DNA from: Clostridia bacterium
GTDB lineage: Bacteria > Bacillota > Clostridia > Oscillospirales > CAG-272
Assembly: GCA_017502975.1 (NCBI GenBank)
Contig: JAFVTV010000015.1
Coordinates: 6,473 to 70,472, forward strand
Direction: 5' to 3'
Length of the DNA stretch: 64,000 bases
The notes under the pieces were generated by a model. It was not told where the DNA came from. It made no database searches and was given only the letters and a program-made list of their open reading frames with translations. The position numbers and the translations under genes were made by a program. Shown in pieces: positions 3,806 to 43,240 of the stretch (its first letter is position 1; every line of letters begins with the position of its first letter).

Positions 3806-3834
3806 TTGAAAAATGAATAAATTTTAGATATAAT
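3806..3834 (+). promoter_or_regulatory. sigma-A type promoter for the EF-G-like gene
   Basis: TTGAAA (3806-3811), 17-nt spacer, TATAAT (3829-3834). Confidence 0.6.
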
Positions 3835-3912: not shown

Positions 3913-5958
3913 ATGGCAACCTTTGACACAAAATCAATTCGTAATCTTGCGCTTCTCGGTCACGGCGAATGCGGTAAAACCAGCCTTGCCGAGGCTATGC
4001 TCTATCTTGCGGGCAAGACCGACCGTCTTGGCAAGATTGCTGACGGCAATACCGTTTGTGACTTTGATCCTGAGGAGCAAAAGCGCGGTATTTCTATTTC
4101 TTCAGCGCTGGCACATGTCGAGTGGAAAAATATTAAGATCAATATGATCGACACCCCCGGTGACCCCGACTTTGCGGGTGAGGTAGGGCAGGCACTGCGT
4201 GTAGCCGGCTCCGCTGTGATCGTGGTAGACGGCAAGAGTGGCATTGAGGTAGGCACCGAGCTTGCTTGGAATGCGGCGGAGGCAGCAGGCGTGCCGCGCG
4301 TATTCTTTGTAAACAAGTGCGATGATCCCGAGTACAGCCTTGAAAAATCCTTCTATGAGCTGCACGACAAGTTTGGCACAACCGTGTGCCCCGTGTTTGT
4401 GCCCTGCAACATCGGCAACGAAATGGCAATGATTGACCTGATCTCCAACACCGCCTACACCTACAACAACGCCGGCAAGCGCTTTGAGATTCCTATGTCC
4501 GATACCATGAAGGAAATGGTAAATCGCTACAAGGATGCGCTCAATGAGGCGATCGCGTCCACGAGCGATGAGCTCATGGAAAAATACTTTGCGGGCGAGG
4601 AAATCACACGTGAGGAGGCAGCACTTGCGCTTCACGAGGGCATTATTGCAGGCACTATCACTCCTGTTTACTGTGGCTCTGCCACCAAGATGTGGGGCGT
4701 GATCGCTATGATGGATGCAGTTGCAGAGTCCTTCCCGCGCTTTACCGCTAAAAAGGTTGAAACCCTTGCCGGCGGCAAGACACTTGATATTGACGTTAAC
4801 GGCGATCCCGCCATTTTCGTATATAAGACCGTTGCCGATCCGTTTGTTGGTCAGATGTCCTTCTTTAAGGTCATGAGTGGTACGCTCAAGCGTGATATGG
4901 TTTTGAAGAATGCACGCACGGGCACTGCCGAGAAGCTTGCTCACTTCTATGTAATGAACGGCAAGACCCAAGCCGAGGTAGAGGAGCTTTACTGCGGCGA
5001 TATCGGCATGATCGCCAAACTCTCCGACACCAAGACGGGCGATACACTCTCCCTTGGCGGCACGGTTGTATATAGCCAGATGAGTTATCCGACGCCTTAT
5101 ATGACTAAGGCAATCCAGCCCCTTACCGCCAAGGACGAGAGCAAGATGTCCCAAAGCATTGCTAAGATGCTTGAGGAGGATCGCACGCTCCGTTATGAAA
5201 ACAATAAGGAAACCTCTCAGGTCCTGATTTCCGGTATGGGTGATACGCACCTGTCGGTTCTGGTTGCACGTCTTGAAAGCCGCTTTGGCGTCAAGGTGAA
5301 GCTGGAGGAGCCCAAGATCGCCTATCGCGAGCGCATTACCAAGCGCGTGGACGTAGAAGGCAAGCACAAGAAGCAGACCGGTGGCTCGGGTCAGTACGGT
5401 CATGTAAAGATCCGTTTTGCACCCGCAGAGGAGCAGGGGCTTACCTTTACTGTTTCCGTGGTTGGCGGCGCAGTACCCAAGAACTTTAATCCTGCTGTAG
5501 AAAAAGGCTTGCAGGATGCAATGGTAAAGGGCGCTTACGGCTATCCTCTGGTGCAGCTTGCTGCAGATCTTTACGACGGCTCTTACCACGCTGTTGACTC
5601 CGATGAGCTTTCCTTCAAGCTTGCCGCTCAGCTTGCTTATAAGAAATGCCTTGAGCAGGCAGCACCTGTTTTACTTGAGCCTGTCGGCAATCTTGATATC
5701 ACCGTTCCCGAATCGCTTGTTGGTACCGTTATGGGTGATCTTAATAAGCGCCGCGGTAGCGTAATGGGTATGGATCACGCTGAGGGTAAGAAGGGCTACA
5801 CCGTTGTACACGCAGTTGTACCCAAGGCTGAGATCATGGATTATCCTATTGCTCTTCGCGCAATGACAAAGGGCTTTGGCAGCTTTGAGTTTGCTGTAAC
5901 CGATTATGAGGTGGTTCCCGGAAATCTGACTGCAAAAATTACCGCAAACAAGGAATAA
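3913..5958 (+). CDS. elongation factor G paralogue (EF-G-like translational GTPase, atypical G motifs)
   Basis: 681 aa with full five-domain EF-G architecture by colinearity with EF-G. G1 is GHGECGKTS, G2 RGISIS, G3 DTPGDPDF (Asp where canonical EF-G has His), and G4 NKCD. GGAGG lies upstream of the ATG. Confidence 0.85.
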   Translation: MATFDTKSIRNLALLGHGECGKTSLAEAMLYLAGKTDRLGKIADGNTVCDFDPEEQKRGISISSALAHVEWKNIKINMIDTPGDPDFAGEVGQALRVAGSAVIVVDGKSGIEVGTELAWNAAEAAGVPRVFFVNKCDDPEYSLEKSFYELHDKFGTTVCPVFVPCNIGNEMAMIDLISNTAYTYNNAGKRFEIPMSDTMKEMVNRYKDALNEAIASTSDELMEKYFAGEEITREEAALALHEGIIAGTITPVYCGSATKMWGVIAMMDAVAESFPRFTAKKVETLAGGKTLDIDVNGDPAIFVYKTVADPFVGQMSFFKVMSGTLKRDMVLKNARTGTAEKLAHFYVMNGKTQAEVEELYCGDIGMIAKLSDTKTGDTLSLGGTVVYSQMSYPTPYMTKAIQPLTAKDESKMSQSIAKMLEEDRTLRYENNKETSQVLISGMGDTHLSVLVARLESRFGVKVKLEEPKIAYRERITKRVDVEGKHKKQTGGSGQYGHVKIRFAPAEEQGLTFTVSVVGGAVPKNFNPAVEKGLQDAMVKGAYGYPLVQLAADLYDGSYHAVDSDELSFKLAAQLAYKKCLEQAAPVLLEPVGNLDITVPESLVGTVMGDLNKRRGSVMGMDHAEGKKGYTVVHAVVPKAEIMDYPIALRAMTKGFGSFEFAVTDYEVVPGNLTAKITANKE

Positions 5959-5976
5959 AATCAATAAAACACAAAA

Positions 5977-6045
5977 ATTTCGGAAAACCTATTGACATTC
6001 TTAAATTCATACATTATAATTGAATTATGAATTATTTTCCGAAAT
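5977..6045. repeat. perfect 11-bp inverted repeat bracketing the promoter of the small ORF
   Basis: ATTTCGGAAAA (5977-5987) and TTTTCCGAAAT (6035-6045) are exact reverse complements, 47 bp apart. The distal half abuts the Shine-Dalgarno AAGGAGG (6046-6052). Confidence 0.8.
5992..6020 (+). promoter_or_regulatory. consensus sigma-A promoter
   Basis: TTGACA (5992-5997), exactly 17 nt, TATAAT (6015-6020). Both hexamers match the consensus perfectly. Confidence 0.75.
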
Positions 6046-6058
6046 AAGGAGGCATAAA

Positions 6059-6208
6059 ATGAAACTGCACTATCTTGAGCCCAGCGCTGAAATTCGTTTC
6101 CTTTTAAGCAAAGATATCATTGCCGCATCTCAGGAGCCTCAGGAGCCTACGGATCCTCTGAAGCCCGAAACTGCTCCTAACGACGATGTAGTTGCGGATC
6201 CGTTCTAA
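6059..6208 (+). CDS. small acidic proline-rich protein (49 aa), unknown function
   Basis: The ATG at 6059 is 6 nt after AAGGAGG, so it is preferred over the track's 6020 start. Product: MKLHYLEPSAEIRFLLSKDIIAASQEPQEPTDPLKPETAPNDDVVADPF. It has its own promoter and a downstream terminator. Confidence 0.6.
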   Translation: MKLHYLEPSAEIRFLLSKDIIAASQEPQEPTDPLKPETAPNDDVVADPF

Positions 6209-6268
6209 GTCCTGTTATCGTATAGGGCGGCTTTGTTTAGCGCCGAACGAAAATATTAACAATTAAGA

Positions 6269-6309
6269 ATCACCTTTCTATTCTTTAAGCGGTAGAGAGG
6301 TGATTTTTA
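6269..6309 (+). terminator. rho-independent terminator
   Basis: 12-bp stem ATCACCTTTCTA / TAGAGAGGTGAT (one G.U pair), 12-nt loop, then TTTTT. Confidence 0.75.
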
Positions 6310-6389
6310 TATGCATTTATTTTGAATTTAAATTTATATTTTTTACCGCCACACCTCTAAATTTATGCAGAATAGAGATGCCTTACTTT

Positions 6390-6437
6390 TGTCGCAGTAT
6401 GTCGCACACTTTTTTTGTGTGCTGACAGACTGCGACC
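6390..6437 (+). promoter_or_regulatory. three Spo0A-box-like elements upstream of the spoIIA operon
   Basis: TGTCGCA at 6390-6396 and 6400-6406 (10-bp phasing), and inverted GTCGCAG at 6430-6437. The 0A box consensus is TGTCGAA. An extended -10-like TGTTACAAT lies at 6456-6464. Confidence 0.3.
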
Positions 6438-6500
6438 TTTTTTTTGCTTACGCTTTGTTACAATCATATGGAAGATATTGCTTTGAAAGGACGTGAAAAA

Positions 6501-6845
6501 ATGTTTCGGACGGACTATCGTTTGGAGATAAAAAAACGCGATTGGCTATTGGTGGTGCGGCTTTTTGGTGAGATCGATCACCACAGCGCGGTGTATATGC
6601 GCGAGGAATTGGACAAGCTCATTTTAAAGGAGCGCCCGCGGCGCTTGGTGCTTGATCTTTCCTGTATTGAATTTATGGATAGCGCAGGCTTGGGGCTTTT
6701 AATGGGACGCCTGAGGTTGATGCACGATATTGGTGGTGTAATGGCACTTACACGCCCCAATGAAAGAATTATGAAGATCTTGCGACTTGCAGGTATGGAG
6801 CGCTTTATGGAAATCGACGGTGAAGGCGCGAAAGGAGATAGATAA
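6501..6845 (+). CDS. spoIIAA: anti-sigma-F factor antagonist (STAS domain)
   Basis: GEIDHHSAVYMREELD...FMDSAGLGLLMGR retains the phosphorylatable Ser after Asp. It is the first gene of a spoIIAA-AB-sigF triad. The start was chosen at MFRTDY (6501); the ORF is open from 6444. Confidence 0.9.
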   Translation: MFRTDYRLEIKKRDWLLVVRLFGEIDHHSAVYMREELDKLILKERPRRLVLDLSCIEFMDSAGLGLLMGRLRLMHDIGGVMALTRPNERIMKILRLAGMERFMEIDGEGAKGDR

Positions 6846-21017: not shown

Positions 21018-21060
21018 GAACCCGCCGGAAAGCAGTGCTTGAGGGCGGGTTCGGATTATT
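21018..21060 (+). terminator. possible terminator after lysS (weak U-tract)
   Basis: GAACCCGCC-N17-GGCGGGTTC perfect 9-bp stem, followed only by GGATTATT. Confidence 0.35.
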
Positions 21061-21082
21061 CACTCTTGCTAAGGAGAAAGGA

Positions 21083-21883
21083 ATGGAACATAACAGAGAA
21101 GAAAAGCGCGAGGCGCGCCAGATCAGGCTCGGCGGTGGCAAAAAACGCCCCGAAAAGGAGCATGGCAAGCTTTACCGCTGGCTGGATAATTTTTGGTATC
21201 ACCACAAATGGGCAACGCTTGCCACACTTTTCTTGGTGATCGTGATCACCGTTTGCGCTTTGCAAATGTGCTCGCGCGAGGAAAAGGGCGATATCACAGT
21301 TGTAACCGCAGGTCCTTATGGCTTTGTTACGAACGAAGCGGGGCTGCTTGATCTGAAAAATTGCCTTTCTACATACTTGCCCGAGGATTATAACGGCAAT
21401 GGCATAAAGGATATTACCGTATATTCCTATAGCATCTTTTCGGAGGATGAGGCGCAGGAGCTTGAAAACCGTGTGGATGAAAACGGAGAACCGGCAGGTG
21501 TTGCGGTAGACCGTTATCAAAACACACAGGAATACTCCAATTTTTCGCAGTATCTTCAAACGGGCGATGCAGCAGTGCTGTTTTTGTCCCCTTGGCTCGC
21601 TGAGGAATATTCCAAACGAAGCGGTGTACTTGTTGATTTTGCCGAGCTGCTTGAAAAGGAGCCCGAAAATGGAGCGTATGCAACGCTTGAGAGTGGAAAG
21701 ACGGTATGCTATGGCATCAAGCTTTGCGAAACGGCTCTTTGGCGCGAAAACAGCGCTGTGAGAAGCGCCTTGCCCGAGAATACAGTCATTTGCTTGATGA
21801 TGCCGGGGATAATTGGTAATAACAGCGATCAAGAAATATACAATCACGCGATAGACTATGTAAAGAAACTGATCGAGCAATAA
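21083..21883 (+). CDS. hypothetical membrane-anchored protein
   Basis: The ATG at 21083 has AAGGAGAAAGG upstream. The N-terminus is charged (MEHNREEKREARQIRLGGGKKRPEKEHGK), followed by one TM (WATLATLFLVIVITVCAL) and a ~200-aa extracytoplasmic domain with no motif I recognise. Confidence 0.6.
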   Translation: MEHNREEKREARQIRLGGGKKRPEKEHGKLYRWLDNFWYHHKWATLATLFLVIVITVCALQMCSREEKGDITVVTAGPYGFVTNEAGLLDLKNCLSTYLPEDYNGNGIKDITVYSYSIFSEDEAQELENRVDENGEPAGVAVDRYQNTQEYSNFSQYLQTGDAAVLFLSPWLAEEYSKRSGVLVDFAELLEKEPENGAYATLESGKTVCYGIKLCETALWRENSAVRSALPENTVICLMMPGIIGNNSDQEIYNHAIDYVKKLIEQ

Positions 21884-22009: not shown

Positions 22010-22783
22010 ATGTATAAAAACAAAGTTGAAATATGTGGGATCAACACCTCTGAATTAAAAACGCTGACCGATGAAGAAAAGCGCGAACTGCTAAAAAAAG
22101 CGCAGGCAGGGGACAGCGCCGCGCGCGATGAGGTGATACTTGGAAATTTGCGTCTGGTGCTTTCGATCATTCAACGGTTTTCGGGGCGCAAGGAAAATGT
22201 GGACGACCTTTTTCAGGTAGGGTGCATCGGTCTTGTTAAGGCGGTGGATAATTTCAACCTCGCGCTTGATGTTAAATTTTCCACTTATGCCGTGCCTATG
22301 ATCATTGGCGAGATCAGGCGTTATTTGCGCGACAATAACTCTATTCGCATCAGCAGATCGGTACGGGATCTTGCATATCGCGCTTTGCAGGTAAGAGAAG
22401 AGCTGACGCGCGAGCGAGAGTATGAACCGAGCGTTGATGAAATTGCCAAAAAGCTTGGTGTAGAGCGTGAGCCAATTCTGCGTGCTATGGAGGCGATTGC
22501 CCAGCCAATCTCTCTTTATGAACCGGTGTATAACGAGAGTGGTGATGCCATTTATATCATGGATCAGATCAGTGACACCTCGGCTCAGGATGAGCATTGG
22601 CTTGAGCATATTGCGTTGCGCGACGCGATGAAAAAGCTTTCCGACAGGGAGCGAAAAATCATTGAGTTGCGCTTTTATAAAAACAAAACGCAAATGGAAA
22701 TTGCAGAAAGCATCGGCATTTCACAAGCGCAGGTATCGCGCCTTGAAAAGGGGGCGCTTGAGCGCATGCGAAAAGAAATTTAA
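22010..22783 (+). CDS. sigG: RNA polymerase sporulation sigma factor G
   Basis: MYKNKVEICGINTSELKTL, NLRLVLSIIQRF, DDLFQVGCIGLVKAVDNF, KFSTYAVPMIIGEIRRYLRDNNSIRISRS, and GISQAQVSRLEK are near-identical in pattern to B. subtilis SigG. Confidence 0.92.
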   Translation: MYKNKVEICGINTSELKTLTDEEKRELLKKAQAGDSAARDEVILGNLRLVLSIIQRFSGRKENVDDLFQVGCIGLVKAVDNFNLALDVKFSTYAVPMIIGEIRRYLRDNNSIRISRSVRDLAYRALQVREELTREREYEPSVDEIAKKLGVEREPILRAMEAIAQPISLYEPVYNESGDAIYIMDQISDTSAQDEHWLEHIALRDAMKKLSDRERKIIELRFYKNKTQMEIAESIGISQAQVSRLEKGALERMRKEI

Positions 22784-36781: not shown

Positions 36782-37653
36782 AAAACATAGCTCTTATCAC
36801 CAATTTTAACATTTACGATAAGGCAAATGCAGCGCTTACCGTTGCTGAGGAGCTTGTCAAATACGGTGCTAGCGTCATGCTTGCCTCGATCAACAAGGAC
36901 CGTATTTTCCGTTTGCATAAAAACAAAAAGGAATATGTGTACCTATCCTTAGAGGAGCTTTATCGTGAGGCGGACGCTATTATCGTGCTTGGCGGTGACG
37001 GCTCTTTGCTTGATGCCGCGCGCCGTGCGGCGCCACACGGAAAGCCTCTGCTTGGCATCAACATGGGGCGTCTTGGTTACATGACGGAGCTTGAGATGAG
37101 CGAGCTTGCTTTGCTTGAAAAGCTTTTTACGGGAGAATATGAGTTGGATCACCGTGCGATGCTACACATTGCCGTTAAAACACAAGCCGGTGGCACAAGA
37201 GCCGAATCCTTTGCGTTAAACGATGCCGTGATCTCCAACGGCTCGGTGGCGCGTATTGTTGATCTTGAGCTGTATGAGGCAGGGGAATTGGTTACCACAT
37301 ACCGTGCTGACGGCGTGATCGTATCGACGCCTACGGGCTCTACTGCTTATTCGATGTCGGCAGGCGGACCCATTACCGACCCTCACTTGGGGTGTCTTTG
37401 CGTTACACCGATCTGCTCGCACTCCTTAACGGCACGACCGATCGTATTTCGCGATGATGCCACGCTGGAGATCAAAAACACTTGCCAACGTGAGAAAATG
37501 CTGTATCTTACCGTTGACGGCAAGATCAATTTTGAAATTTATCGCGGAGATTTTGTTACGATTACAAAATCACCCATGGAAACTGCGCTCATTCGCTTTA
37601 AAAAGAGTGGATTTTATAACAGATTGCAAAATAAAATGAATGCACAAGATTAA
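36778..37653 (+). CDS. nadK: NAD+ kinase
   Basis: GGDGSLL, INMGRLGYMTE, NDAVI, ADGVIVSTPTGSTAYSMSAGGPI are the NadK motifs. It has an ATGA overlap with tlyA. Confidence 0.93.
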   Translation: MKNIALITNFNIYDKANAALTVAEELVKYGASVMLASINKDRIFRLHKNKKEYVYLSLEELYREADAIIVLGGDGSLLDAARRAAPHGKPLLGINMGRLGYMTELEMSELALLEKLFTGEYELDHRAMLHIAVKTQAGGTRAESFALNDAVISNGSVARIVDLELYEAGELVTTYRADGVIVSTPTGSTAYSMSAGGPITDPHLGCLCVTPICSHSLTARPIVFRDDATLEIKNTCQREKMLYLTVDGKINFEIYRGDFVTITKSPMETALIRFKKSGFYNRLQNKMNAQD

Positions 37654-37666
37654 AGGAGTAAGACAC

Positions 37667-38122
37667 ATGAAAAGCAACAGACAAAAGAAAATTTTAGAGA
37701 TCGTCAACCGTTTTCACGTCGAAACGCAGGATGACCTGATTGCTTATCTTGAAACAGAGGGCTACTCTGTGACGCAGGCAACTATTTCCCGTGATATTCG
37801 AGAGCTGCAGCTCACCAAGGTGCTTACCACCCGCGGAACCTATCGCTACATAGCACCAAAGCGCGAGGACATGGTGTCCGGGCTTAAGTTTAATGCCGCA
37901 TTGGTTGATTCTATTATCAGTGTGGAGTACGCGCTCAATATGATCGTAATCAAGACCTATCCCGGTCTTGCACAGGCAGTTGCGGCAGGTGTGGACAACC
38001 TTTCGCTTGCCGAGGTGCTTGGATGTGTTGCGGGCGATGATACGATCATGATCGTTACCAAAAATGAAAGCGCCGCGAAAAGCATTAGCGAGCGCATTCA
38101 TGTCATTATGAAAGACGGCTGA
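37667..38122 (+). CDS. argR: arginine repressor
   Basis: RQKKILEIV......TQDDLIAYLETEGYSVTQATISRDIRELQLTKV and GCVAGDDTIMIV. The ATG at 37667 follows AAAGGAG. Confidence 0.93.
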   Translation: MKSNRQKKILEIVNRFHVETQDDLIAYLETEGYSVTQATISRDIRELQLTKVLTTRGTYRYIAPKREDMVSGLKFNAALVDSIISVEYALNMIVIKTYPGLAQAVAAGVDNLSLAEVLGCVAGDDTIMIVTKNESAAKSISERIHVIMKDG

Positions 38123-41804: not shown

Positions 41805-42533
41805 TTGTTTCGGATACGTATTGCAGAATTGAATGTTGAAATACAAAATAAATATCCTTTCTCTGAAAAATTTTGCCGTGAGTTTGCGGCTGAATTTTCT
41901 AAGCCCGATATTACGGTCTTTGTTACCCCGGAGGAGCTAGAGGCGGAACGAGAATTGGATCTTTACAATTCTACCGACGGGTATCTTGAATGTATCTGCA
42001 TTTATCGAAAGATTGCTTTGGAGCTTCCTAAATTTGATGCCATGGTCTTTCATGCCTCGGTGATTTCCTGTGACGGTGAGGGATATGCCTTTGCCGCGCA
42101 CAGCGGAACGGGAAAATCCACGCACACCGATCTTTGGCTGCGCGTTTTTGGTGAGCGTGCCTCGGTTGTAAACGGTGATAAGCCCATTTTTCGTTTGATC
42201 AACGGCAAATGGCAGGTCTTTGATACCCCTTGGCGCGGCAAAGAGAAATTAGGAAATCATTCCAGTGCACCCCTGAAAAGTATTTGCTTTTTGGAGCGCG
42301 GCAAGGAAAACACCATAAATCCGATTGGGGATGCGGAAGCGGTATCTCGCCTGTTTTCGCAGGTCCTTTTACCCAACGACCCCGTTATGGCAGAGCAGCA
42401 GCTTGCTTTGCTCGACTCCCTCATTACAAATACCCCCACATATTTGTTACATTGTAATATGATGCCCGAGGCGGCAATCGTTTCTTATCAAGGTATGTGT
42501 GGACAAAAGGAGAACAACAATGAAACGCAGTAA
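41805..42533 (+). CDS. HPr-kinase-like P-loop protein (HprK-related kinase family)
   Basis: 242 aa from a TTG start 9 nt after AAGGA. GYAFAAHSGTGKSTHTDLW resembles the HprK C-domain P-loop G.SG.GKS. Shape and length match HprK-related kinases found next to PqqD-like genes. Confidence 0.6.
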   Translation: MFRIRIAELNVEIQNKYPFSEKFCREFAAEFSKPDITVFVTPEELEAERELDLYNSTDGYLECICIYRKIALELPKFDAMVFHASVISCDGEGYAFAAHSGTGKSTHTDLWLRVFGERASVVNGDKPIFRLINGKWQVFDTPWRGKEKLGNHSSAPLKSICFLERGKENTINPIGDAEAVSRLFSQVLLPNDPVMAEQQLALLDSLITNTPTYLLHCNMMPEAAIVSYQGMCGQKENNNETQ

Positions 42534-42786
42534 GGATTTTATCAAGCGCAAGATCGGCACACAGTATGTGATCGTTGCCGTTGGTGCTGCAACCAAAAAA
42601 TTTAACGGCATGATCTCCGTAAACTCCACCGGTAGCTTTATTTGGGATCAGCTTGAACAAAGCATGACGATGGATGAGCTGGTAAATGCTATTGTTGAAA
42701 ATTATGAGATAGACGCAGCAACCGCTACTGCACATGCTACCCAATTTGTTAATACATTGAAGGGAGTAGGCGCGATTGCAGAATAA
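42520..42786 (+). CDS. PqqD-family protein (RiPP recognition element-type peptide chaperone)
   Basis: 88 aa. YVIVAV....KFNGMISVNSTGSFIWDQLEQSMTMDELVNAIVENYEIDAATATAHATQFVNTLKGVGAI follows the PqqD/RRE pattern (LN.tg..iW..l....t..el...l...Y.vd...a..D...Fi..L...G.i). AAAGGAG lies 7 nt before the ATG. It overlaps the kinase gene by 14 nt. Confidence 0.75.
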   Translation: MKRSKDFIKRKIGTQYVIVAVGAATKKFNGMISVNSTGSFIWDQLEQSMTMDELVNAIVENYEIDAATATAHATQFVNTLKGVGAIAE

Positions 42787-43240
42787 GCAATATACCATGC
42801 AGGAGATGTACCCCTTGCTTCTTGAGGTGATCGAAAGCGGCGGGGAATTTCGCCTTTGGCCGCGTGGCACCAGCATGATGCCGTTGCTTCGTCAGGGTAA
42901 GGATAGCGTGCTGCTTGTGTCACCACACCATTTGCAAAAGCGCGATATTTGCCTGTATCGCCGTGCTGACGGTGCATTTGTGCTACACCGCTTGATGAAG
43001 CTTGAAAAAAACGGTGCGCCTGTTTTTTGCGGTGATAATCAAACGGCATTTGAATACGGCGTGCCGCGTGAGAGCATCATTGCGCGCGTGTGTGATGTAT
43101 ATCGAGGAGATCGCCGTATCTCGGTAGGATCAAAAAAATACCGTTTGTATGTTTTTTTTCACTGTATTATGCCGTTGCGTTTTTTGCGCTTTTTGCCGCG
43201 TCGTGCATGGGGGCGCTTGAAAAGAATTTTCAAAAAATAA
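42776..43240 (+). CDS. S24/S26-family (LexA/signal-peptidase-like) serine peptidase
   Basis: FRLWPRGTSMMPLL (a G.SM.P nucleophile motif) and DICLYRRADGAFVLHRLMKL (the typical beta-strand with the following Lys). The C-terminus is basic and amphipathic (LRFLRFLPRRAWGRLKRIFKK). The start is TTG 42776 or ATG 42797. It overlaps the PqqD gene. Confidence 0.65.
   Translation: MQNKQYTMQEMYPLLLEVIESGGEFRLWPRGTSMMPLLRQGKDSVLLVSPHHLQKRDICLYRRADGAFVLHRLMKLEKNGAPVFCGDNQTAFEYGVPRESIIARVCDVYRGDRRISVGSKKYRLYVFFHCIMPLRFLRFLPRRAWGRLKRIFKK

Follow-up and report, generated by a model that had tools for sequence, protein, structure and literature searches.

A predicted family of small acidic proteins encoded behind an EF-G paralogue in uncultured Clostridia of animal guts

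Developmental control in Bacillus often involves small acidic antagonists, Sda, SinI and AbbA among them, and together with MciZ they offer a close described comparison for the gene analysed here, a 49-codon open reading frame (ORF) at positions 6059..6208 on the plus strand of a 64,000-nucleotide stretch of contig JAFVTV010000015.1 (assembly GCA_017502975.1), from a Clostridia bacterium of the Oscillospirales. We refer to this whole stretch as the window, and all coordinates are those of the window. The small protein and the Bacillus proteins are alike in size class, in being encoded by a separately promoted single gene, in the lack of an enzymatic domain, in short conserved contact segments and in having developmental or housekeeping operon neighbours. 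The Bacillus proteins are mostly helical and folded, whereas the small protein is predicted to be unstructured, with half of its length taken up by a Pro/Asp/Glu tail, and no sequence or profile similarity connects them. A second comparison is with the tails of SSB and of the archaeal and eukaryotic P-stalk. SSB carries a linker plus a DDD[IL]PF tip whose free C-terminal Phe is essential for binding, and the P-stalk tail binds translational GTPases. With these the small protein shares a flexible Pro-rich or acidic linker, an Asp-rich motif and a Phe or Trp, and its genes adjoin those of an EF-G paralogue or of IF2. Its tail is borne by a 24-residue peptide, in contrast to the OB fold of SSB and the stalk dimer of the P-stalk, and its motif is D-P-F with an unfixed C-terminal residue, as against [IL]-P-F in SSB and GFGLFD in the P-stalk. 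A third comparison is with precursors of peptides that are ribosomally synthesised and modified after translation (RiPPs), including lasso peptides, for which YxxP is a leader motif. Here the likeness lies in an N-terminus of about 24 residues that is conserved and leader-like (Y-x-x-P, R-F-L), a more variable C-terminal part and a strong promoter plus terminator of its own; the differences are that no maturase, RiPP recognition element (RRE) or exporter gene was found in the window or in the examined flanks of related loci, and that the tail motif is conserved, not hypervariable.

To the ORF, which ends in a TAA stop (6206-6208) and encodes the Cys-free protein MKLHYLEPSAEIRFLLSKDIIAASQEPQEPTDPLKPETAPNDDVVADPF, a word-indexed search found eight near relatives. 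When 1.84 billion cluster representatives were searched exhaustively with a profile, only eight further small relatives and one spurious repeat protein came up. Two profile iterations enlarged the family to 89 distinct members, all of them small (42-67 aa) and, where named, called only 'hypothetical protein'. Over codons 1-24, gap-free in 15 loci, the mean proportion of synonymous differences was 0.58 versus 0.20 for nonsynonymous differences. The invariant residues A10, L15 and A22 are each encoded by four codons and S24 by three, and differences in length are due to in-frame insertions and deletions only, all in the tail. The initial annotation had named a lack of frame conservation in relatives as its refutation, and the frame proved conserved. 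Judged from these comparisons, 6059-6208 is a genuine protein-coding gene under purifying selection, and a chance frame or an RNA-only element is excluded for practical purposes. The idea that the frame arose by chance, within a regulatory spacer or the gene of a small RNA, and is untranslated draws on the shortness of the ORF, its lack of a database family and the uninformative names of its homologues, but we give it next to no probability: selection acts at the amino-acid level while synonymous sites turn over, indels keep the frame, a consensus Shine-Dalgarno (SD) sequence is ideally spaced in all loci and nothing matches Rfam near a gathering score. An Rfam scan of 5800-6600 (E ≤ 1) returned three far-sub-threshold matches only and no known RNA family. 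An in-frame upstream TTG start at 6020, giving a 62-aa version, was rejected; it overlaps the -10 hexamer and lacks an SD, and the extended frame does not stay open in relatives. As a separate observation, the nucleotide identity of codons 1-24 (6059-6130) to related loci (here numbered with the prefix L) is 100% for L007, 94% for L001 and 89% for L004, against 74%, 60% and 55% at four-fold sites of the upstream EF-G-like gene. Synonymous sites at the start of the small ORF thus seem more constrained than in the EF-G gene, and codon bias or an RNA-level constraint could account for this.

The peptide had been described as two-halved, and the family bears this out: residues 1-24 are almost invariant and codons 25-49 specify an acidic, Pro-rich tail of variable length. 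The family consensus is MK..Y.EP.A.[ILV]R[FLM]L....DI[IL]A.S, followed by the tail. Among 75 aligned members M1, K2, P8, A10, R13, L15, D19, I20, A22, S24 and D47 are invariant, and Y5 occurs in at least 90% of members. The tail of the window protein, QEPQEPTDPLKPETAPNDDVVADPF, has six Pro, as first counted, and seven Asp/Glu instead of the eight reported. The tails of the 89 members are 18-43 residues long, with an average of five Pro and eight Asp/Glu (in 25 residues); Cys is found in 0/89, basic residues are almost absent and the net charge of the whole protein averages -6.8. Only short motifs are conserved, with linkers of varying length between them, and the tail keeps three anchors: EEP right behind S24, PE in the centre and DDxxxD[PN][FW] at the terminus. 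The window protein has 49 codons and its closest relatives have 46 because of an exact tandem 9-bp duplication (CTCAGGAGC x2, at 6129..6146, encoding QEPQEP), which alignments show as a single copy in the relatives.

The C-terminus is DPF-COOH in 39/89 members and DPF plus one to three extra residues in 17/89, and the remaining 33/89 end in DNF, DPW, DTF, DTL[DE] or D[IL][DE]W[NDS], with one DDFAPM. Together with the Pro-rich acidic linker, the 39 D-P-F-COOH ends could suggest that the tail is a decoy of a hub-protein tail, such as the SSB tip DDDIPF or the FtsZ C-terminal peptide. This is very improbable in our view, since it leaves the near-invariant N-terminal 24 residues unexplained and the residue before Pro is Asp and not Ile or Leu; moreover 50/89 members do not end in DPF-COOH, so a free C-terminal Phe is not a family feature.

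AlphaFold2, run with the 75-sequence alignment, returned an extended chain with no secondary structure (predicted local distance difference test score 71, predicted template modelling score 0.17). The window protein was unmatched in Pfam, where the 75 aligned members gave three isolated single-member matches (best E-value 0.084). There were no matches to the small protein in NCBIfam at E ≤ 10, none in PHROGs and PADLOC, and none in a PDB profile search at E ≤ 10. In the literature no paper was found with IRFLLS, RFLLSKD or DIIAAS as a peptide, and the supplementary tables of a human-microbiome small-protein catalogue (bioRxiv 10.1101/494179) held no match. Inspection of the alignment revealed no uninterrupted hydrophobic core of 10-15 residues as in a Sec signal, the N-terminus being interrupted by E7, E11, R13, K18 and D19. 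The same inspection did not find a double-glycine leader (G-[GAS] at -2/-1; hydrophobic residues at -4, -7 and -12): in one register -2 falls on the variable residue 23, and in the other -1 is variable. The searches point to an undescribed family of acidic proteins of 42-67 aa whose members occur only within one clade of uncultured Oscillospiraceae/Clostridia from animal guts. Its members are probably cytoplasmic and intrinsically disordered, and would work by binding and not by catalysis.

Transcription of the gene is predicted to depend on a sigma-A-type promoter, TTGACA-17-TATAAT, at 5992..6020. Both hexamers and the spacing match the consensus (12/12), with a predicted start at about 6027 (from spacing only), and the SD AAGGAGG (6046..6052) lies 6 nt ahead of the ATG at 6059; in these points the initial annotation was accurate. 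Downstream, an intrinsic terminator hairpin at 6264..6309 has a T run at 6304-6308 and a predicted energy of -35.4 kcal/mol (z -4.6). Its stem, earlier given as 12 bp, proved to be an 11-bp G+C-containing core (6270-6280 / 6293-6303) that reaches 19 bp (6264-6282 / 6291-6309) through A-U and G-U pairs. We compared these signals in 14 distinct loci that have the ORF behind EF-G, with protein identity down to 44%. TTGAC[AT]-17-TATAAT was kept in 14/14, and in 14/14 the stop codon is followed by a G+C hairpin and a T run. The hairpin sequence is unrelated between lineages while its position is kept, which fits selection for function and not for sequence. The SD, in the form AAGGAGGCAT[AG]AAATG, is retained in L001-L013, and distant loci keep AAGGAGG or GGGAGG. 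All 14 loci have an A/T-rich tract 5' of the -35 hexamer, of differing sequence; in the window this tract (AAAAATTTCGGAAAAC, 5959..5991) also holds the left arm of an inverted repeat, and by comparison with the known consensus it is consistent with an UP element. The gap between the EF-G stop and the ATG is near-constant (73-105 nt) and is made up wholly of promoter and 5' untranslated region (5' UTR). The 5' UTR (-38..-1), which includes the right arm of the repeat, is 0.95, 0.89, 0.89 and 0.68 identical to the window in L007, L001, L004 and L009, as against 0.74, 0.60, 0.55 and 0.51 at EF-G four-fold sites. It is clearly constrained, above the four-fold-site level.

Hexamers spaced by 17 nt and a hairpin followed by a T run, each at a conserved position, predict an independent transcription unit. 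The gene had been called autonomous and monocistronic; its own conserved promoter, SD and terminator stand, and its autonomy is incomplete. Only 33 nt separate the stop of the upstream EF-G-like gene (5958) from the -35 hexamer, and a terminator scan of the gap found no terminator-like site, as had been reported; the EF-G transcript therefore also takes in the small ORF as its 3' gene. The EF-G paralogue (681 aa, 3913..5958, plus strand) has its own promoter-like site, TTGAAA-17-TATAAT, with one mismatch at 3806-3834, from which the EF-G transcripts that can run into the small ORF probably start. From this arrangement, the unit is EF-G plus the small ORF with a strong internal promoter, not strictly autonomous, and one terminator ends both the small-ORF transcript and the EF-G read-through transcript.

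Consensus promoters are frequent in the window, where we counted four perfect and six one-mismatch TTGACA-17-TATAAT sites (ten, all on the plus strand) versus 0.29 expected. They thus appear to be typical of the genome and no special mark of the small-ORF gene. The perfect sites start at 5992, 15257, 24400 and 31688 and the one-mismatch sites at 3806, 9429, 28796, 31321, 40294 and 50574, several of them just 5' of plus-strand genes (EF-G, rsmE-like, Na+/H+ antiporter, nusB). We also noted a mini-ORF of six codons (ATGAATTATTTTCCGAAATAA, encoding MNYFPK) at 6027-6047, which starts at the predicted transcription start and whose stop overlaps the SD. ATGAAT recurs at its position in L001-L008, L011-L013 (ATGGAT in L013) and L019, with varying mini-ORF length and frame. 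It may be a leaderless upstream ORF or merely a conserved initial transcribed sequence.

The promoter is bracketed by an inverted repeat of perfect 11 bp, in which ATTTCGGAAAA at 5977-5987 has its exact reverse complement at 6035..6045, inside the conserved 5' UTR. The repeat is present as first described; the suggestion that it is a conserved regulatory element did not withstand comparison. A perfect 11-nt repeat across the promoter arose in 1/2000 flank shuffles (P about 0.0005), and the nearest species, L007, has a 9-bp version (P = 0.01). In the other 12 of the 14 loci the repeat is not above chance, with promoter, SD, ORF and terminator all retained. Among close relatives, the arms show a G-U-compatible change in L002, an A-C mismatch in L001 and a one-base shortening of both arms in L004. 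The tract with the left arm (-100..-68) is 0.88, 0.73, 0.48 and 0.39 identical to the window in L007, L001, L004 and L009, and its 0.48 (L004) and 0.39 (L009) compare with 0.55 and 0.51 at EF-G four-fold sites. By this measure the left-arm region evolves at a roughly neutral rate.

In RNA that reads through from EF-G, the two arms are predicted to form a stem (-15.9 kcal/mol, z -2.5), and promoter-initiated RNA has no significant predicted structure. This agrees with the earlier proposal of a stem specific to read-through transcripts; the stem however ends one base short of the SD and leaves it uncovered. Both arms contain the near-palindrome TTTCSGAAA (TTTCCGAAA/TTTCGGAAA), which occurs nine times in the window versus about 1.2-3.9 expected. 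We discarded a regulon reading of it: all seven copies away from the promoter region lie in coding sequence (1490, 7807, 17108, 29883, 41507, 49272 and 52090), and the four on the plus strand that were translated read (L/V)-S-E, from CTT/GTT-TCC-GAA, apparently a codon-usage effect. Against the CodY box AATTTTCWGAAAATT, neither arm came within three mismatches (four and five by count), and the seven CodY-like sites with ≤3 mismatches in the window are not above chance. A Spo0A box in the small-ORF promoter was also dismissed, as the arms match TGTCGAA in 5/7 positions only and the candidate boxes of the lineage read TGTCGCA. The likeness of TGAATTATTTTCC to an ARG box is about 11/14 by eye and does not extend to distant loci; an argR gene is located in the window at 37640-38122.

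The repeat may still be functional in this lineage, as a read-through-specific stem or as operator half-sites bracketing the promoter. Its rarity in shuffled flanks, the 9-bp version in L007, the fold predicted for read-through RNA alone, the G-U pair of L002, the alike-shortened arms of L004 and the near-palindromic arms speak for such a role. We nevertheless regard it as doubtful, in view of the chance-level repeat in 12/14 loci that retain all else, the unpaired A-C in L001, the nearly neutral left arm, the exposed SD, the lack of CodY-box likeness and the coding origin of TTTCSGAAA elsewhere. Most likely the inverted repeat is a by-product of an UP-like A/T tract and an A/U-rich 5' UTR that both happen to contain TTTCSGAAA. 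The comparison suggests that it is not a family feature and at most a young, lineage-specific device.

The upstream paralogue has all five EF-G Pfam domains and scores 801 bits with NCBIfam NF009381, over the cut-off, while the canonical model TIGR00484 stays below it (584 < 659). At all main-subfamily loci examined, this gene directly precedes the small ORF. The named carriers are all metagenome-assembled Oscillospiraceae/Clostridia from animal guts. Directly downstream lie spoIIAA-spoIIAB-sigF in every examined main-subfamily locus except L023. There (small ORF at 6001-6174) EF-G is kept upstream and genes for an ABC-transporter ATPase and two FtsX-type permeases replace spoIIAA; it is the sole rearrangement seen at the small-ORF locus. 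The neighbourhood check proposed at the outset thus placed the main subfamily behind the EF-G paralogue and, L023 excepted, before spoIIA, with no PqqD gene in the window. A second, paralogous subfamily of 59-67 aa, MK[QK]DYKIP.A.LRFL...DILAAS...DP.APDIDWN, has longer tails, ending in APD[IL][DE]W[NDS], and is always found, as the last gene, 24-48 nt after a 141-aa NUDIX gene following infB (three contig sets: L018 8001-8195, L021 4380-4574 and L026 1485-1664). No TTGAC[AT]-17-TATAAT was found ahead of it in L018 and L021, the two sets scanned. Assembly GCA_054269775.1 carries both the infB-linked and the EF-G-linked (L024) form, so the forms are paralogues.

The position next to spoIIA raises the question of whether the protein is a sporulation regulator, e.g. 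one that modulates the SpoIIAA/SpoIIAB/sigma-F switch, Spo0A or asymmetric division. In addition to this adjacency, nearly all recovered carrier loci encode the spoIIA operon, and the small acidic antagonists of Bacillus mentioned above set a precedent. Even so, we consider this role distinctly unlikely. The small-ORF terminator insulates the gene, and spoIIA has a separate conserved operator-like element and promoter. The small-ORF promoter is of the sigma-A housekeeping type and not one of a sporulation sigma factor. L023 keeps EF-G where spoIIA is no longer a neighbour, the paralogous subfamily sits in the infB operon, and Pfam, NCBIfam and PDB searches revealed no sequence similarity to known sporulation proteins.

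The architecture of the protein also resembles that of a RiPP or exported signalling-peptide precursor, in which residues 1-24 would be the leader and the tail the core, with the maturase or exporter elsewhere in the genome. The near-invariant N-terminus precedes a tail more variable in sequence and length, the strong promoter followed by an own terminator is typical of precursor genes, and AlphaFold predicts an extended chain, as for leader peptides. A resemblance to leader-like N-termini had been noted at first; YxxP is present, whereas an assignment to a precursor family failed, with no maturase or exporter gene in the window or in the examined flanks of related loci. For lasso peptides, Y5-x-x-P8 matches the leader motif (Y5 in at least 90% of members, P8 invariant), a weak match alone as the motif is short. 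There is no conserved Thr ahead of the tail for the Thr at -2 (A22, x23, S24), and no Asp/Glu in a fixed register at core positions 7-9; with S24 as core residue 1, P0004 has P-L-N there. Genes for lasso B (protease/RRE) and C (Asn-synthetase-like cyclase) proteins are absent from the window and the examined related-locus flanks.

For graspetides, P..A.IRFLLSKD loosely recalls the microviridin leader motif. This motif is PFFARFL, more generally P-h-h-x(1,2)-h (PMC8939145). The R-F-L stretch of the small protein is offset by one residue relative to microviridin, and the 'Phh' motif is not seen, as the residue after P8 is S, K, R, A, N or H and the next one is the invariant A10. Asp/Glu are abundant in the 89 tails, but the minimum of Ser+Thr is 0 and so is that of Lys+Arg, unlike a graspetide core, and 11 different residues occur right behind the conserved PE. 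No graspetide ATP-grasp ligase gene was found in the 64-kb window or the examined flanks of related loci. For lanthipeptides, sactipeptides, ranthipeptides (SCIFF) and AgrD, whose cores need Cys or, in some AgrD, Ser, the 89 tails have no Cys and the window has no radical-SAM/SPASM, Lan or AgrB gene. As some tails also lack any Ser, Thr or Lys, lanthi-, sacti-, ranthi-, thio- and graspetide chemistry as well as AgrD-type cyclisation are ruled out for the family. Since, furthermore, the window encodes no ATP-grasp, PqqD/RRE, lasso B/C or peptidase-ABC exporter protein, the tail keeps its composition and terminal motif family-wide, unlike hypervariable cores, and no Pfam or NCBIfam precursor model matches, a precursor role is quite improbable.

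The explanation that we prefer for the locus combines a genuine gene, a disordered binding protein and an incidental repeat. The small ORF would be transcribed from its own sigma-A promoter and by read-through from EF-G, then translated from a strong SD, with its own terminator ending the transcript. The N-terminal 24 residues (Y5, P8, A10, R13, L15, D19, I20, A22, S24) are proposed to bind a partner and to take up their fold on it. Their alternating small and hydrophobic residues (I20, A22, S24; A10, I12) would be compatible with strand addition or with a short amphipathic element formed on the partner. The charged Pro-rich tail, with a net charge of -6/-7, may serve as a flexible arm whose anchor motifs (EEP, PE, DDxxxD[PN][FW]) would provide a second contact or charge mimicry. 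From the two independent placements behind translational GTPase genes, the translation machinery is the first candidate partner. A translational GTPase or the ribosome as the partner is a tentative proposal, which we think possible and yet clearly short of probable. More specifically, the family might consist of dedicated small partners of translational GTPases, of the EF-G paralogue for the main subfamily and of IF2 for the paralogous one, a rather unlikely scenario. In such a dedicated-partner scenario the N-terminal segment would dock and the acidic, aromatic-tipped tail would be presented to the GTPase, functionally reminiscent of the archaeal and eukaryotic P-stalk tails. The protein could thereby tune translation in spore-forming Oscillospiraceae, e.g. 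at entry into sporulation.

Several points weigh against the explanation we prefer. Every homologue comes from metagenome assemblies, and both translation and the partner are predicted. That AlphaFold predicts no fold for a 49-mer argues only weakly for disorder. As consensus promoters abound in the genome, exceptionally high expression is not established. The repeat is statistically unusual, as stated above, and near-versions of it exist in L002 (G-U) and L004 (mismatch). The order metG-tatD-EF-G-X-spoIIAA is conserved clade-wide, so the adjacency to EF-G may be an inherited order, and only the rearrangement in L023 and one paralogue placement bear on the EF-G linkage. The placement next to EF-G and IF2 genes is thus a lead and not a finding, as inherited gene order could explain the EF-G adjacency. 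Taken as a whole, we hold the explanation by gene, disordered binder and incidental repeat to be somewhat better founded than an even guess.

Beyond the small-ORF unit, the 64-kb window contains housekeeping and sporulation genes only. At the boundary to spoIIAA (ATG 6501), a palindrome at 6391..6445 (plus strand) reads TGTCGCA-gta-TGTCGCA ... TGACAGA-ctg-CGACC plus T8 and lies 13-15 nt 5' of the TGnTACAAT -10 element of this gene. It is also present in L001, L004 and L009-L013, and its right half in L019, L020 and L025; the sequence blocks do not vary across eight species, while the 3-nt spacers covary. Its tandem 7+3+7 arrangement agrees with the geometry of Spo0A '0A boxes' (TGTCGAA). By this analogy the palindrome is probably a Spo0A operator of spoIIA, and it may also act as a second terminator. 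Three ORFs of the window had no Pfam match at E ≤ 1e-5, namely 21035-21883 (282 aa), 41805-42533 (242 aa) and 42776-43240 (154 aa). The first of them is directly upstream of a gene of the sigma-70 family (22010-22783). In a spore former, a SpoIIGA-like protease is expected 5' of such a gene.

The history of the inverted repeat illustrates that a feature statistically striking in one genome can vanish when relatives are compared. If translated as predicted, the small ORF would bring a well-supported new family of 89 members into the known set of conserved small proteins of bacteria, which is still thin. The family comes from uncultured Clostridia of rumen and gut, in which small genes are usually passed over. 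New is a family with no assigned function, while small acidic proteins as a general kind are already known. Its two independent placements behind translational GTPase genes, those of the EF-G paralogue and infB, provide a concrete hypothesis, and the link to translational GTPases, if true, would be a first clue to the function of the second EF-G that is widespread in Clostridia.

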